Positions 54,329 through 58,896 of a DNA stretch of 64,000 nt are shown piece by piece. The position numbers and the translations under genes were made by a program. The stretch lies in contig CBDFLQ010000007.1 in the NCBI GenBank assembly GCA_965249275.1, forward strand, positions 928,001 to 992,000, given 5' to 3'. This DNA is from Dehalococcoidia bacterium (GTDB taxonomy: Bacteria > Chloroflexota > Dehalococcoidia > Plut-88900). Below the pieces are notes generated by a model, which was given only the letters and a program-made list of their open reading frames with translations, ran no database searches and was not told the DNA's origin. How positions within the stretch are numbered: position 1 is the first letter of the stretch; every line of letters starts with the position of its first letter.

Positions 54329-54523
54329 TTAGGCGGCTGGCTTCATTCGCTCCGTGTTAACCGGTCTGTTTTGGACCTTCACCGTGCGGCGGGAGACCAT
54401 GGCTGCGACATCGGCCTCGTTGAGGTCTCGGCTGCACTGGAAACAGGTGATGTAGTGGCCGAACAAATCGGTGCCGGAGAACAGATCGCCTCCGCACCAG
54501 GGGCAACCCTTTAACCAGAACAT
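54329..54523 (-). CDS. Small Zn-ribbon protein
   Basis: AAGGAG RBS; MFWLKGCPWCGGDL...ITCFQCSR. Confidence 0.75.
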   Translation of the reverse strand: MFWLKGCPWCGGDLFSGTDLFGHYITCFQCSRDLNEADVAAMVSRRTVKVQNRPVNTERMKPAA

Positions 54524-54781
54524 TGTTTCAATCTCCTTCCTCACCGGTCTGCGGTACACATTCTCCCGAACCCTGTGAAGGCCCGAGACATTTAACGTCC
54601 CTACATTTTCTATAACGAAAGATCGGCGATTTGGTTCCTTCTCGGGGGCCGGGAATTTCCAGAAGGCGTTACAAGCTAGTATTTGCGGCGTGGGTAGAGC
54701 CTTATCCAACGCTGAGCCAAGGCGCGAGCCAGTTGACTACGATTAGAGAGTCGTTTTAGTATTGGATGTCACGAATCTCGG

Positions 54782-54858
54782 GGCGCATTCGTCTAGCGGC
54801 CTAGGACACCGCCCTCTCAAGGCGGAGACCACGGGTTCGAATCCCGTATGCGCTACCA
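54782..54858 (+). tRNA. tRNA-Glu(CTC)
   Basis: GGCGCAT/ATGCGCT acceptor, CCGCC-CTCTCAA-GGCGG anticodon arm, TTCGAAT, CCA. Confidence 0.96.
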
Positions 54859-54925
54859 CTATATGTACGTGCTAGCTATAGAACGCCTTGATGGTCAGTA
54901 CGGTCACCACTTAAGACACCACCTG

Positions 54926-55075
54926 ATGGCTACCCCAAAACGCCCCAATCCTCCACAGAAACCTTCACCATCGCCTCCATCTCAGCCACGTCCCAAGCCA
55001 ACCATTGAAACCTTTAACCCTCAGCCAAGACGCCCGCTTATCTCAGGAATGGAAGATACTCATGGCTGCCTCTAA
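54926..55075 (+). CDS. Pro-rich micro-peptide 1 (49 aa)
   Basis: MATPKRPNPPQKPSPSPPSQPRPKPTIET...; paralog of the next ORF; weak RBS. Confidence 0.5.
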   Translation: MATPKRPNPPQKPSPSPPSQPRPKPTIETFNPQPRRPLISGMEDTHGCL

Positions 55076-55166
55076 TCCGTCAAAGCCTCAACAGAAGCCA
55101 CCCTCGCCTTCCCCTTCACAGACACGCCCCAAGCCCACGAGGGAGACCCGCAGCTTACCTTTATAA
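55062..55166 (+). CDS. Pro-rich micro-peptide 2 (34 aa)
   Basis: MAASNPSKPQQKPPSPSPSQTRPKPTRETRSLPL; purine-rich AGGAATGGAAG upstream; below the ORF-track cutoff. Confidence 0.55.
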   Translation: MAASNPSKPQQKPPSPSPSQTRPKPTRETRSLPL

Positions 55167-55688
55167 GGTCAGGCTGATCACTCCCCAAGTGGCACCTGTC
55201 ACCATCTCTACGATTAGCAGGTGCCCCATCCAATCTGCCCTTCCCGCCATTTTGTCGAGGAATTCACTGTTGTCGCGCATGTGCTCGCCAGCAGTCTCGA
55301 TCAAATGCCTTTTGAATTCGGTGGGGTCAAGTTCAACATCTGACTGAGGGTCGAATCCCTCGCGATCGACAATTAGTAATCCCGGGTCTATTGTCGCGAG
55401 CTTGCCAATTTTGAGTGTTCGAACGGCGCCGATTCTAATGGCAAAAAAGGCAGCCAAGGCTAGGATTCCAGGTATCGCAGCCCAAAGGGTCCAAGAAATC
55501 TTGCCACCGTTTATTGCGCCTACAATTGCCGGAATGCCGATTAAAGCAATCGTTGATTGTGCAAGCTGGCTCTGTATCCGCTCTTCTACTGCGGATATGC
55601 GCCTCAACATCCACTCATAGGATGAGGGAATGTATTCGTAAGCAAGGTCAAGGGACGGATATTTTTGATCCGGCGTCGCTTTACTCAT
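55161..55688 (-). CDS. Hypothetical 3-TM membrane protein
   Basis: Amphipathic helix, two TMs, soluble loop/helix, C-terminal TM; AAGG RBS. Confidence 0.75.
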   Translation of the reverse strand: MSKATPDQKYPSLDLAYEYIPSSYEWMLRRISAVEERIQSQLAQSTIALIGIPAIVGAINGGKISWTLWAAIPGILALAAFFAIRIGAVRTLKIGKLATIDPGLLIVDREGFDPQSDVELDPTEFKRHLIETAGEHMRDNSEFLDKMAGRADWMGHLLIVEMVTGATWGVISLTL

Positions 55689-56026
55689 TGGACCTTAAAA
55701 TGTAAGGCCATGCATTCAGACCGTCAACTAACATTCAATAGACCTGCGGAAATCACTGCAAAGACAAGACCCACGCCCCCGGCGCAGAATGTGCGATCCT
55801 CAGTTAGGGAATACGGGTGGGTGAGACGTGGTCCGCTCTGATGCTATAACGTCCGCGCCATGAATGGCTGAAGGGCGTCGAGCGAGCAGGCCAGTTCGCA
55901 AGGTGAGATTGACCAATTCAGTTGATTGGCCAATCAATAATACGGGTTGCCAAGCTCTAGCTATTCTATTTGTCGACTCTCGGCAGCCTACGTCCAGCAT
56001 TCATTGCCTACAAGCAACTGATGGCG

Positions 56027-57268
56027 CTAGTAGGCTACTTTCGTATCAGTAGCTACCAGCTTGCCCTCTTTGACCTTGTTTACGATGTAAGAGAGATCAC
56101 TGATGTATTCTTCGACTACCGGCTTCTGGATTAACGATAGCATCATGTGTATGGCGTTGGGTTCCTGGATACGGCTGGTGTACCAGCCTGAGTCGCTCAT
56201 GCCGTCTGCGACGGCGAAAATATCGAATTCGCTGGAACCGTAAGTGAAAATGGTCAGTTGCGGGTCTCCGTATGTTTCCAGGCCATCGATGCGATTAACG
56301 CCGTCCATTAAGGCTTCCCTGATGTGGAGAACCTCTTGCGCAATCCTCATATACCCCTCTTCGCCCAGATAGTTCATTACCGCCCATGCGGAGGCTATGG
56401 CGCCACCGGGTCGGCTGCCGACGAATGTTTGGGTCGAGTAGAGGCCTTTCGACCATTGGTCGAAGACGAATCCCTGGTATTCCAGGTACTGGGCGTCGCT
56501 GTATAGGACCGTGGATGCGCCCTTTGCTGCATAACCGTTCTTGTGAATATCCGCGGAGATGGACCTGACGCCGGGAATGGCGAAATCGAAGTCGGGTATG
56601 GAGTAGCCCAGTTTCCTGACAAAGGGCGCGATAAATCCGCCTATGCAACAGTCGACGTGGAGCCAGAGGTCTCTGGACTGGGCCAGTTCTCCCAAGTCGC
56701 CGATGGGATCGACAACCCCATGCGGGTACTCCGGGGCCGAGCCGACCATCATGATCGTATTGTCGGTGATGGCGTCGGACATGGCATCAACATCGGCGCG
56801 GAAGTCAGGGCCCGGGTTTACCCTTACTACTTTCATGTCCAGGAGTTCGGCGGCACGGTCAAACGCAGGATGCGCCGTGCGGGAGGTCAATATCTCAGGA
56901 GCGCCCTGGATGGGTCTATTGGCTCGGGCCCAGTCTCGGGCGGACTTTATGGCGAGGAAGATGCTTTCGGTGCCTCCCGTTGTCATGCTGCCGGCGGCGT
57001 TCTCTCCGCCGTGAAGCAGCCCCAGGCTTAGGTCGATAACCTCTTCCTCCATGTTGGCTAGACTCGGGTAGACCTTTGGATAGACTGCGTTCTCGTTAAA
57101 GAACATAGCGTATGCGTCATGGGCGACCTGTATAACATCATCGCCGGCGTAATAGAGCAGGCCCGAGATTTTCCCGGTGCGCCAGTCGATATCACCCTGT
57201 CGCGCTTCGGTGAGACGGTCTTTTAGCTCGTCCCAGTTGGTGCCGGTTTTCGGAAAAGACTTGCCCAT
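56027..57268 (-). CDS. PLP-dependent group II decarboxylase, sphingosine-1-phosphate lyase-like
   Basis: TTGGTESI, TAHPAF, SAPEYPHGVVDPI, HVDCCIGG, SADIHK, GSRPGG. Confidence 0.88.
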   Translation of the reverse strand: MGKSFPKTGTNWDELKDRLTEARQGDIDWRTGKISGLLYYAGDDVIQVAHDAYAMFFNENAVYPKVYPSLANMEEEVIDLSLGLLHGGENAAGSMTTGGTESIFLAIKSARDWARANRPIQGAPEILTSRTAHPAFDRAAELLDMKVVRVNPGPDFRADVDAMSDAITDNTIMMVGSAPEYPHGVVDPIGDLGELAQSRDLWLHVDCCIGGFIAPFVRKLGYSIPDFDFAIPGVRSISADIHKNGYAAKGASTVLYSDAQYLEYQGFVFDQWSKGLYSTQTFVGSRPGGAIASAWAVMNYLGEEGYMRIAQEVLHIREALMDGVNRIDGLETYGDPQLTIFTYGSSEFDIFAVADGMSDSGWYTSRIQEPNAIHMMLSLIQKPVVEEYISDLSYIVNKVKEGKLVATDTKVAY

Positions 57269-57396: not shown

Positions 57397-57425
57397 TTGA
57401 CGGGTTCACCTAGGGCCCATAGAAT
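57397..57425 (+). promoter_or_regulatory. Sigma70-type promoter
   Basis: TTGACG-N17-TAGAAT. Confidence 0.65.
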
Positions 57426-57474
57426 GCCGCATTGTGCCTACCGAAGAGCCGTTCATTATGATATGGGAGGAAAT

Positions 57475-58896
57475 ATGGTCAAGATCGGAAACACAACTAA
57501 GAAGATGACAAGAGGCCGCGTCATCTTGGGGGTTATGGGCATTCTGCTGGTAATCCTGCTGGTATCCGCGGCCTGTGCAGGACCTGCCGGCCCTCCAGGT
57601 CCTGCCGGTCCCTCCGGAGCTGCCGGCGCAGCCGGCGCCACAGGCGATGCGGGACCCGCCGGCCCGCAAGGCCCACAGGGCCCCGCCGCCGGTGAGGCAC
57701 CGTTGCCCACGGCGACACCTGTTCCCACGGCAATGCCCGAGCCCACCGCCATGCCGGAACCCACTGCGATGCCCGAGCCTGAGAGCCTTATAAGGCCGCC
57801 ATCCGAGTGGACAATAGAGAATCCAGCAACGCGCGAGGAGATAGAAGCGGAACTGGAAAACTACAGAGGCCAGACCATAACCTACGGAACTTGGGGTGGC
57901 GCCTACACCTCCGCAGAGCAAGTGGCATATTTCGATCCCATTGCTGAACAGTTTGGCATCGAAGTAATTGCGGACGGGACTACCAACCCGAATACGAAGC
58001 TGCGACTGATAGCCGAGACCGGCAACTTCGACTGGACCTTCGCCCTGGGGACTACTCCGGTCTTCGCCGAGCTTGGTGAGATCGGGCTCCTGGAACCCCT
58101 GGACAAGAGCGTGGTCGACAACCGGAGCTTTGCTGGGATCCTGAGGGACCACGCCTACTTCGCCGGCGTAGGAGGAATAGCCTCCGAACCGCTGGCATAC
58201 AGCACGAACACTTACACCGAAGAAACTCGGCCCAAGACCATGAAGGACTTCTTCGACGTGGAGAACTTCCCCGGTGTCCGCGCTCTGGACAGTCGTGGAT
58301 GGACGTGGTTGCGCTACGTGACGGCCGCCTACTGGAGCGAAAACCCCGAGCACATAGGCACAACCGATGGCACTCTTAGCCTCGAACAGATCGATGAGGC
58401 CTACACTTACCTGGACGAGCTGAAGCCCCACATCAACGTCTATGCCGCCGGTTCCTCCGACTGCCCCACCTTCCTGATCGTAGGCGAGGTGGACATGTGC
58501 CTCACCGGCAACGGCCGTTTCGGAGCAGCCATCCTAAACGGCGATCCACTGCAGATGTCCTGGGAGGCCGGGCACCTGATGACCACCTTCGCCCAGGTCA
58601 TTCCCATCGGCTTGAGGGATGCCGAGCCTGAGAAATTTGAGCTTACCCAGCTCATCATGGCATACCTCTCCTTCCCGGAGATAAACAACCAGATCTCCCG
58701 CTACATCCAGTACTCCCCCATCAACCAGGCATCTTGGGAGCTTCTTGCCGGTCCGGAATTCGACGAAGCGCGGCAGTTCCTGCCCACCTCACCCGCTAAC
58801 GCCCAATACGGCTGGCTAGTGGACGAAGTATGGCAGACCGGCGTCACCGCCGAGCAAACTGAGCGCTACGTCACCTGGCAAACTGAGGGTAGCTAA
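57475..58896 (+). CDS. Lipoprotein solute-binding protein (PotD-like) with collagen-like and PTAMPE stalk
   Basis: Lipobox SAAC, 12 Gly-X-Y triplets, 3x PTAMPE, then WGGAY..A..YFDP, DFFDVENFPG.R and NGR. Confidence 0.85.
   Translation: MVKIGNTTKKMTRGRVILGVMGILLVILLVSAACAGPAGPPGPAGPSGAAGAAGATGDAGPAGPQGPQGPAAGEAPLPTATPVPTAMPEPTAMPEPTAMPEPESLIRPPSEWTIENPATREEIEAELENYRGQTITYGTWGGAYTSAEQVAYFDPIAEQFGIEVIADGTTNPNTKLRLIAETGNFDWTFALGTTPVFAELGEIGLLEPLDKSVVDNRSFAGILRDHAYFAGVGGIASEPLAYSTNTYTEETRPKTMKDFFDVENFPGVRALDSRGWTWLRYVTAAYWSENPEHIGTTDGTLSLEQIDEAYTYLDELKPHINVYAAGSSDCPTFLIVGEVDMCLTGNGRFGAAILNGDPLQMSWEAGHLMTTFAQVIPIGLRDAEPEKFELTQLIMAYLSFPEINNQISRYIQYSPINQASWELLAGPEFDEARQFLPTSPANAQYGWLVDEVWQTGVTAEQTERYVTWQTEGS

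Follow-up and report, generated by a model that had tools for sequence, protein, structure and literature searches.

The window analysed here is a 64,000-nucleotide (nt) stretch of the genome of a Dehalococcoidia bacterium (contig CBDFLQ010000007.1, positions 928,001 to 992,000). Directly 3' of a tRNA-Glu gene it carries a block in which two short, proline-rich open reading frames (micro-ORFs) converge on the gene of a 175-aa membrane protein. The locus raises the question of whether these micro-ORFs are genes at all and, if so, whether they belong with the membrane gene that they face. On comparison of the sequences, they are probably a genuine peptide gene pair that is translated and has a functional tie to the membrane gene. 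The block would have been acquired horizontally and would carry one copy of a conserved module of two genes, the membrane gene and a convergent micro-gene abutting or overlapping it at the 3' end; in the window the micro-gene would have been duplicated in tandem to give two overlapping ORFs. The features on which this reading depends are the following.

54782-54858, + strand: tRNA-Glu gene (anticodon CUC; Rfam match); the conserved left flank stops here, the homology of relatives ending at 54858-54859
54860-56007: genome-specific insert of about 1.15 kb, from tRNA-Glu to the gene of a pyridoxal phosphate (PLP)-dependent decarboxylase, with lower GC content (0.48-0.55) and foreign codon usage
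54926 (ATG) to 55073-55075 (stop), + strand: micro-ORF 1, 49 aa, with its repeat core at 54926-55012
55062 (ATG) to 55164-55166 (stop), + strand: micro-ORF 2, a paralogous peptide of 34 aa, with its repeat core at 55062-55148
55161-55688, - strand: gene of the 175-aa, three-helix membrane protein
55161-55166: TTATAA, in which the stop of the membrane gene (- strand, 55161-55163) abuts that of micro-ORF 2 (+ strand, 55164-55166)

Coding signature of the two micro-ORFs

The first 29 codons of micro-ORFs 1 and 2, whose starts lie 136 nt apart, aligned without gaps, and residues were identical at 16 of the 29 positions, eight of them through identical codons and eight through synonymous ones. The core differed at 29 of its 87 nt, split 8/3/18 over codon positions 1, 2 and 3. 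The Nei-Gojobori method gave a proportion of synonymous differences (pS) of 0.66, a proportion of nonsynonymous differences (pN) of 0.22 and a ratio of nonsynonymous to synonymous rates (dN/dS) of 0.16 (Fisher p = 2.8e-4), to be read with the caveats that the core counts just 29 codons, that its synonymous sites are near saturation and that the pair was chosen for its likeness. The first-pass annotation of this DNA, made from its letters alone, had described the two ORFs as paralogous and had taken their synonymous codons as a mark of selection on the peptide; realignment reproduced the paralogy in every count, and the dN/dS and codon-position split bear out the selection.

The signal was restricted to one frame and to the core. 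In the +1 frame, pS and pN were about equal (0.35 and 0.34), and the remaining four frames had an in-frame stop in at least one of the two copies. In a neutral simulation, 16 or more identical residues without a stop were retained in 1.3% of 20,000 trials. Similarity extended from about 2 nt before the ATG through codon 29; beyond the core, the next 49 nt of the two copies were unrelated. Only the coding core was thus kept, in codon phase, which points to an old duplication of the micro-ORF.

The product of micro-ORF 1 is basic, proline-rich and hydrophilic, and both window peptides have PP pairs only, without long proline runs. The end of micro-ORF 1 overlaps the start of micro-ORF 2 by 14 nt, so that translational coupling would be possible. 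No Shine-Dalgarno motif was seen ahead of micro-ORF 1, and a weak GGAAG lies 6 nt 5' of the ATG of micro-ORF 2. Peptide 2 and the membrane gene do end in a single TTATAA, as read earlier; these abutting stops leave no space for terminators, so that, judged from the genes alone, the two convergent transcripts must overlap. A consensus scan found no terminator-like site between the convergent genes, nor between tRNA-Glu and the micro-ORFs, and no gene lies downstream of the micro-ORFs on their own strand.

The same region could be read as containing no genes, i.e. as a C-rich, G-poor spacer following the tRNA (for example a Rho loading site) or as decayed remnants of a duplication, open by chance. 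Its base composition (GC skew -0.39; C 39-41%, G 14-18%) is in line with this, as are the missing terminator between the tRNA and the ORFs, the rare codons, the lack of a clear Shine-Dalgarno motif before micro-ORF 1 and the lack of peptide homologs. Such a spacer would leave unexplained the codon-phased substitutions and their low dN/dS, the conservation of the 87-nt core between randomised flanks, and the analogous ORFs beside 24 other loci of the membrane-protein family. Moreover, no Rho RNA-binding domain was found in the 87%-complete assembly, and an Rfam scan gave no family besides the tRNA. A non-genic origin is considered highly improbable.

A convergent micro-ORF beside members of a membrane-protein family

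A word-indexed protein search with the 175-aa protein gave only two close relatives, P0002 (61% identity) and P0003 (77%, 98 aa), and scans of genome_contigs, metagenome_contigs and viral_contigs gave none that could be confirmed. A profile search of 1.84 billion cluster representatives placed it in a larger family of about 800 clusters at 50% identity (795 at E<=1e-3, of which 549 reached E<=1e-10 and 32 E<=1e-30), with lengths almost entirely within 150-190 aa. None of 64 representatives, sampled from 150 listed family clusters, reached a family cut-off in a Pfam scan. One further match, P0009 (4191 aa), had 28 separate stretches matching the family profile (E 3.9e-38); it is perhaps a giant repeat protein, or else the match is an artefact of repeats or low complexity.

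The genome of the window encodes three paralogs of this family, among which the islet copy (i.e. that of the window) is divergent. The second (C6:610894-611388; L031:2989-3483:-, also L002-L008) was present in 7 of 8 congeners, always between a PD-(D/E)XK-type nuclease gene (C-terminal Cys cluster) with rsmG on one side and rpsL-rpsG-fusA on the other, and had no proline-rich micro-ORF. The third, on contig C5, was matched in four congeners.

Family loci were sampled from 301 genomes of the window's class (25 matched), 401 of its phylum (9 matched) and 98 of a second class (9 matched), so that the sampling is confined to one phylum. At each locus the strand opposite the membrane gene was read just beyond its stop; the G075 locus, with a broken membrane gene, was left out of the count. 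A short, hydrophilic, proline-rich ORF convergent to the membrane gene was found at 25 of 49 family loci, in two classes of the phylum, its stop lying anywhere from a 38-nt overlap with the stop of the membrane gene to an 86-nt gap. The first-pass annotation had proposed a peptide/membrane-protein module and had listed a lack of adjacent proline-rich ORFs beside homologs among the observations that would speak against it; about half of the loci carry one, and the proposal of a module is supported.

In the window's class, 20 of 32 loci, the window included, had a bounded convergent proline-rich micro-ORF. Genus g9 had one at all five loci (31-33 aa, ...DKP.RKPxPPxPP...DPGVVI[KR]GA), genus g77 at six of seven (34-38 aa, one with 10 consecutive prolines) and genus g79 at all three (54-69 aa, PDPGREF.EGLRPP...). 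In the window's own genus, the C5-type paralog had one at 5/5 loci (33 aa, ...PSPFVPMQKGFPPKKK); in this genome it lies at C5:405974-406072 (L078:1474-1572:+; copies in L077, L079, L080 and L081) and overlaps the stop of the third paralog by 14 nt. Among the other classes, 5 of 17 loci were positive (L083, L084, L085, L096 and L103) and ten had none; L083 has 13 consecutive prolines, and L084 and L103 have an added acidic tail. The peptide unit, a proline run followed by a D/E-x-G-x-x-[IFT]-[KR]-G-like motif, was doubled within single ORFs at three loci (L070:1989-2195:-; L085:1331-1477:-; L096, 47 aa), which parallels the two-ORF duplication in the window.

Concerning the background, such an ORF accompanied 48 (1.5%) of the 3223 long open frames in this genome under the same strict criteria. 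Looser criteria were passed by 121 of 3223 (3.8%) in this genome and by 10 of 168 (6%) other long frames of the same foreign loci, compared with 20 of 45 frames over the family gene in the looser automatic count. The hand count (25/49) was preferred to the latter because the automatic count includes overlapping frames. The micro-ORF label could be fitted to a tree of 41 of the membrane proteins with 5 changes; shuffled labels needed 13.6 on average, and in none of 500 shuffles was the number as small. The positive loci formed at least six separate groups on this tree; the exact place of the window copy is unsure, as it sits on a long branch. Across lineages, the membrane gene was the only constant neighbour of the micro-ORF, the other flanking genes being variable, and each membrane-protein clade had its own type of predicted peptide. 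At two g79 loci (L068:2289-2873:+; L069:2084-2875:+), a cyclophilin-type peptidyl-prolyl isomerase gene, identified by eye, is divergent from the micro-ORF, which may be coincidence.

The micro-ORFs of other lineages also carried signs of selection. Within g9, pS was 0.43-0.78 and pN 0.18-0.34. Between the g9 and g77 micro-ORFs, which come from different families, pS was 0.5-0.9 and pN 0.26-0.34, with synonymous sites saturated, and the peptide conserved across them reads ...KP.RKPTPPPPP...DPGVVI[KR]GA. The dN/dS was 0.08-0.47 within g79 and 0.05-0.49 among the C5-type copies; the close pair L062/L063 gave 0.77 on very few changes. AGGAG-like ribosome-binding motifs precede many of the family-linked micro-ORFs. 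The C5-type micro-ORF has an extended -10-like element, TGnTAT(C/T)AT, conserved in five genomes 6 nt before the ATG, a position that would fit a leaderless transcript. Taken together, the predicted peptide reading frames are under purifying selection, in the window and in other lineages. In addition, the 11-mer ACCACCTGATG occurred seven times in the genome, including the start regions of micro-ORF 1 (54918-54928) and of the C5 micro-ORF (C5:405950-405960), with TTAAGAC-like words near both of these sites in swapped order.

Some of these properties would also suit a cis-acting regulatory device, in which slow translation dependent on elongation factor P (EF-P), or the convergent transcript itself, tunes the membrane gene and the peptide is a by-product. 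The 3' ends are convergent, abutting or overlapping, at every positive locus, relatives have runs of 4-13 consecutive prolines, and peptide sequences differ strongly between clades. There is also a precedent in SR7/SR7P of Bacillus subtilis, described as a dual-function antisense RNA that also codes for a small protein (PMC7834092). Against this stands the conservation of the non-proline motif DPGVVI[KR]GA across families, with a dN/dS of 0.1-0.4 at saturated synonymous sites, which argues for selection on the peptide; the window peptides, moreover, have PP pairs only. A purely cis-regulatory role is thought unlikely, and a selected peptide partner is retained as the preferred reading.

The family-linked peptides (31-72 aa) are hydrophilic, mostly basic and proline-rich, without a signal sequence or hydrophobic segment. 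Their size could suggest reversed roles, the basic peptide being the active agent (ribosome- or chaperone-targeting) and the membrane protein its exporter or immunity factor. Peptides of 31-49 aa with KP/RP/PRP-type motifs appear to resemble the proline-rich antimicrobial peptides of animals, and in bacteriocin loci a small peptide is often accompanied by an immunity protein that is itself small and membrane-bound. Such a role is very unlikely for peptides that lack a leader or signal sequence, in loci where no maturation or transporter genes were read beside the pair; further, the two genes are convergent rather than operonic, and none of ten tested peptides matched a family.

Both parts of the putative module lie outside current annotation, as anticipated. 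In an exact look-up against a collection of 15 billion proteins, nine of ten peptides, the two window peptides being among the ten tested, were absent and the tenth was present but unnamed; none of the ten matched Pfam or NCBIfam, and the ESM Atlas gave no usable match for a 36-aa peptide. Against a protein database, the window peptides had one candidate of near length and 268 among longer proteins, none of which scored. A six-frame search of the 301 class genomes gave matches at E<=1 in 116, all of them noise-like outside the window's own genome (G000). The best of these (in G211 and G289) were rejected as wrong frames of GC-rich genes. A degenerate DNA motif for SQxRPKPTxET had two chance hits in genome_contigs, in unrelated phyla and neither in a short proline-rich ORF, and none in metagenome_contigs. 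A complex prediction for the G104 membrane protein with its 33-aa peptide, both entered as alignments, scored 0.11 against a mark of 0.32, a value that counts in neither direction on the question of binding.

Several of the results weigh against the proposed pairing, or against the window peptides as members of it. Twenty-four of the 49 family loci had no proline-rich micro-ORF. In the window's class, the 12 negative loci comprised the eight copies next to rpsL, which face the nuclease gene as convergent neighbour, as well as L056, L067, L074 and L075; the rpsL-adjacent paralog indicates that the membrane protein can exist without a micro-ORF. L098 and L099 carry a convergent acidic ORF instead of a proline-rich one, and related genomes are non-independent samples. 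P0003, the relative of highest identity, starts inside the second transmembrane segment (TM2) and has no N-terminal half, though it occurs on contigs of up to 272 kb, and may be a decaying or truncated copy in another genome. The window peptides appear to have no sequence relative except each other in the databases searched, and a profile of the DPGVVIKGA type, run against 14,022 micro-ORFs of the genome, left the window and C5 peptides outside the top 25. Owing to this null result, common descent of the peptide types is not shown and the link of the window peptides to the others depends on other features: they are provisionally assigned to the module by partner family, orientation, stop-to-stop geometry, size and composition, and their own coding signature. 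Finally, rare codons mark peptide 1, which lies at the 0.4th percentile of real-gene windows (GC content at third codon positions, GC3, of 0.41 and 0.59 for the two peptides). The membrane gene is likewise atypical (1.5th percentile), and codon adaptation was discarded as a coding test because the whole islet is atypical.

The membrane protein and its tRNA-Glu islet

The AlphaFold2 model of the 175-aa protein, built on a 10-row alignment, had helices at residues 11-59, 68-93 and 122-174 (mean pLDDT 73), in agreement with the helix, TM hairpin, loop, helix and TM order of the first-pass annotation. The predicted layout of the family is an N-terminal amphipathic helix that continues as TM1, followed by TM2, a loop and a further amphipathic helix that continues as TM3, in about 165-175 aa. 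Foldseek gave no match of the model to the PDB at E<=0.001, and Pfam, NCBIfam and PADLOC gave nothing above their cut-offs.

This layout had been likened to Pycsar-type TM effectors, a comparison that held for architecture and for a language-model lead and failed at the family model and in profile-profile comparison. The nearest ESM Atlas clusters carried PF18967 (PycTM) on 11-15% of their members (score 0.95), and 12 PycTM proteins of the same phylum (173-230 aa), read by eye, had an identical order of helices and hydrophobic segments. Yet PF18967 (cut-off 27.2 bits) did not match the window protein at E<=0.1, any protein of the whole genome at E<=10, any of ten aligned family members or any of the 64 sampled representatives, and hhalign of a 78-row family alignment against the 12 PycTM proteins gave a probability of 4.2%. 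Among SLATT models, NCBIfam NF033634 SLATT_1 reached 12.8 bits (E 0.087) over residues 31-83 only, its curated cut-off being 41 bits; DUF4231 matched two of ten family members (best E 0.11). No cyclase or sensor gene was found next to the membrane gene in a search confined to the neighbourhood (a glyoxalase-family gene, a zinc-ribbon ORF, tRNA-Glu and the PLP decarboxylase), consistent with the earlier remark that no cyclase is present. A literature search on PycTM and SLATT returned unrelated papers only.

Like PycTM and SLATT proteins, the family members are small, stand-alone membrane proteins (about 170-200 aa) built from an N-terminal helix, a hairpin of two TM segments, a loop, a further helix and a TM segment at the C-terminus. 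The family differs from them in the absence of significant sequence or profile similarity and of a nucleotide cyclase or sensor domain, and in its conserved partner, a proline-rich micro-protein, which is not known to be a feature of PycTM/SLATT systems. The likeness, which takes in the general PycTM/SLATT build of about 130-200 aa, is architectural only, and membership is not supported.

This bears on a reading in which the protein is an orphan pore-forming defence effector of the SLATT or PycTM type, carried on an islet, with the proline-rich ORFs incidental. The shared layout and size, the ESM Atlas neighbours and the weak SLATT_1 match speak for it. On the other side, PF18967 is absent from the genome, the profile-profile probability is low, no cyclase or sensor is nearby, and one paralog sits in a conserved housekeeping neighbourhood. 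PADLOC-DB 2.0 gave no family at E<=1 for the membrane protein, either peptide or the zinc-ribbon ORF, and no defence genes were found next to the window module. The toxin-antitoxin, defence or signalling role suggested in the first-pass annotation is accordingly not supported as it was put. As it would also leave the recurrence of the micro-ORF unexplained, an orphan effector is given very little credence relative to a membrane protein with a peptide partner.

For the islet, a 3.4-kb query across the region was compared with eight genomes of the same genus. Both flanks were matched in all eight (72-93% nucleotide identity), the left one with a glyoxalase-family gene, the zinc-ribbon ORF and tRNA-Glu, the right one with the PLP decarboxylase. 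The segment 54860-56007 was matched in none of them. The flanks were adjacent in four congeners, with unrelated fillers of 466 bp (G003), 554 bp (G005), 325 bp (G001) and 305 bp (G004), were about 85 kb apart in G002, and were located elsewhere in the genome in G006, G007 and G008. The distance in G002 may mean a large island at tRNA-Glu. The G005 filler (L012), at the same hotspot, carries a small ORF other than those of the islet, about 105 aa long, whose paired Cys motifs resemble a zinc ribbon.

The GC3 of the membrane gene was 0.53, against a genome mean of 0.74 (sd 0.07). No integrase-sized ORF was found in 54860-56007, and phage and plasmid DNA searches with the islet gave no match. The only direct repeat of the tRNA 3' end was a 12-nt, 92% match inside the membrane gene, which is not convincing as an attachment (att) site. 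Acquisition at a tRNA site, as first proposed, is supported by the absence of the block from the congeners and by its foreign codon usage, and the 1.15-kb block is interpreted as a horizontally acquired islet at a variable tRNA-Glu site. With tRNA-linked genomic islets it shares a strain-specific block directly 3' of a tRNA, a spot that varies among congeners and an atypical composition; integrase-borne tRNA islands differ from it in their integrase and tRNA 3'-end direct repeat, neither of which was found here, and the block has no phage or plasmid similarity.

The remaining features around the module are as follows.

54733-54762: promoter-like site near tRNA-Glu (consensus match only)
55699-55727, - strand: promoter-like site TTGACG-17-TACATT, directly upstream of the membrane gene (consensus match only)
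55770-55788, - strand: terminator-like hairpin downstream of the decarboxylase gene (consensus match only)
56027-57268, - strand: PLP-dependent decarboxylase gene, conserved right flank, outside the module

The hairpin at 55770-55788 would separate the decarboxylase gene from the membrane gene. The zinc-ribbon ORF (CxxC...CxxC; 126 aa; 54329-54709, - strand) lies directly upstream of tRNA-Glu, is conserved in congeners, and had below-cut-off matches to Lar restriction-alleviation (E 0.005) and to the ECs_2282 family (E 0.006). Beyond the decarboxylase gene, a 499-aa protein (57397-58896, + strand) begins with a hydrophobic segment, after which come a GPxGPxG run of collagen-like type, three PTAMPEP repeats and then an apparent solute-binding domain.

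Possible mode of action and relation to known systems

The peptide may stay in the cytoplasm and, being labile, inhibit or regulate its partner, which would be a membrane-perturbing or channel-like protein; this tentative proposal is regarded as possible rather than probable. With the N-terminus of the membrane protein inside (topology read by eye), both of its amphipathic helices would lie on the cytoplasmic side, and the convergent transcripts, through their overlap, would exert antisense control on each other as well. Proline runs, up to 13 in relatives, would tie the supply of peptide to EF-P, which is present in the genome, and to ongoing translation.

A stronger form of this proposal, considered distinctly unlikely, is a translation-sensing 'dead-man switch', in which a short-lived polyproline micro-protein would keep a SLATT/PycTM-like pore closed. 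Peptide synthesis would depend on EF-P and on uninterrupted host translation; if translation were hijacked or stalled (phage takeover, shortage of proline or of EF-P), peptide and antisense transcript would be lost and the cell depolarised. If this were true, it would represent a new toxin-antidote or abortive-infection class, with a micro-protein missed by annotation at its core and small islets like this one as its means of spread. More generally, a toxin-antidote or defence module of this composition would bring a new kind of trigger logic. Apart from these mechanisms, the locus provides a well-defined, testable instance in which a bacterial micro-protein has a probable partner. It may also connect EF-P-dependent translation with membrane function, and it suggests a simple way to find further hidden genes, namely to look for a convergent proline-rich ORF at the 3' end of family members.

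No paper on a convergent pair of proline-rich micro-ORF and membrane-protein gene was found in the literature, as far as the sources consulted in part extend, and, as far as the searches reach, the convergent pairing of a membrane protein with a putative polyproline micro-protein appears not to have been described. Type I toxin-antitoxin loci with convergent, 3'-overlapping genes include txpA/RatA and bsrG/SR4 of Bacillus subtilis; their toxins are hydrophobic peptides below about 60 aa, and the antitoxin is a non-coding RNA. Like these, the window pairs a membrane-protein gene with a small convergent unit whose stop abuts it or, in relatives, overlaps it by up to 38 nt, as known here from the genes alone; on this geometry the two RNAs would pair. 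With SR7 the window would have in common a small transcript that also encodes a peptide. What departs from type I loci is a membrane protein of 175 aa (165-175 aa in the family) with three helices, and a small partner that is itself a coding sequence, conserved and under selection. Type II toxin-antitoxin systems have a co-directional operon and a DNA-binding antitoxin; in the window the two partners converge, and no domain family is matched by either peptide.

MgtL and MgtP are proline-dependent regulatory leader peptides. Such leader peptides and the translation-arrest peptides, among them RAPP-type and Sec/YidC-related ones (PMC12992588, PMC10987492), share with the window micro-ORFs a very short ORF rich in proline codons whose translation rate could report the translation state. 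They lie 5' of the gene that they control and on the same strand, whereas the window micro-ORFs are 3' and convergent, in a family whose non-proline residues are conserved. No described family includes either component and no described system matches the arrangement, and on these grounds the putative module is rated, within the one phylum sampled, as new in kind.

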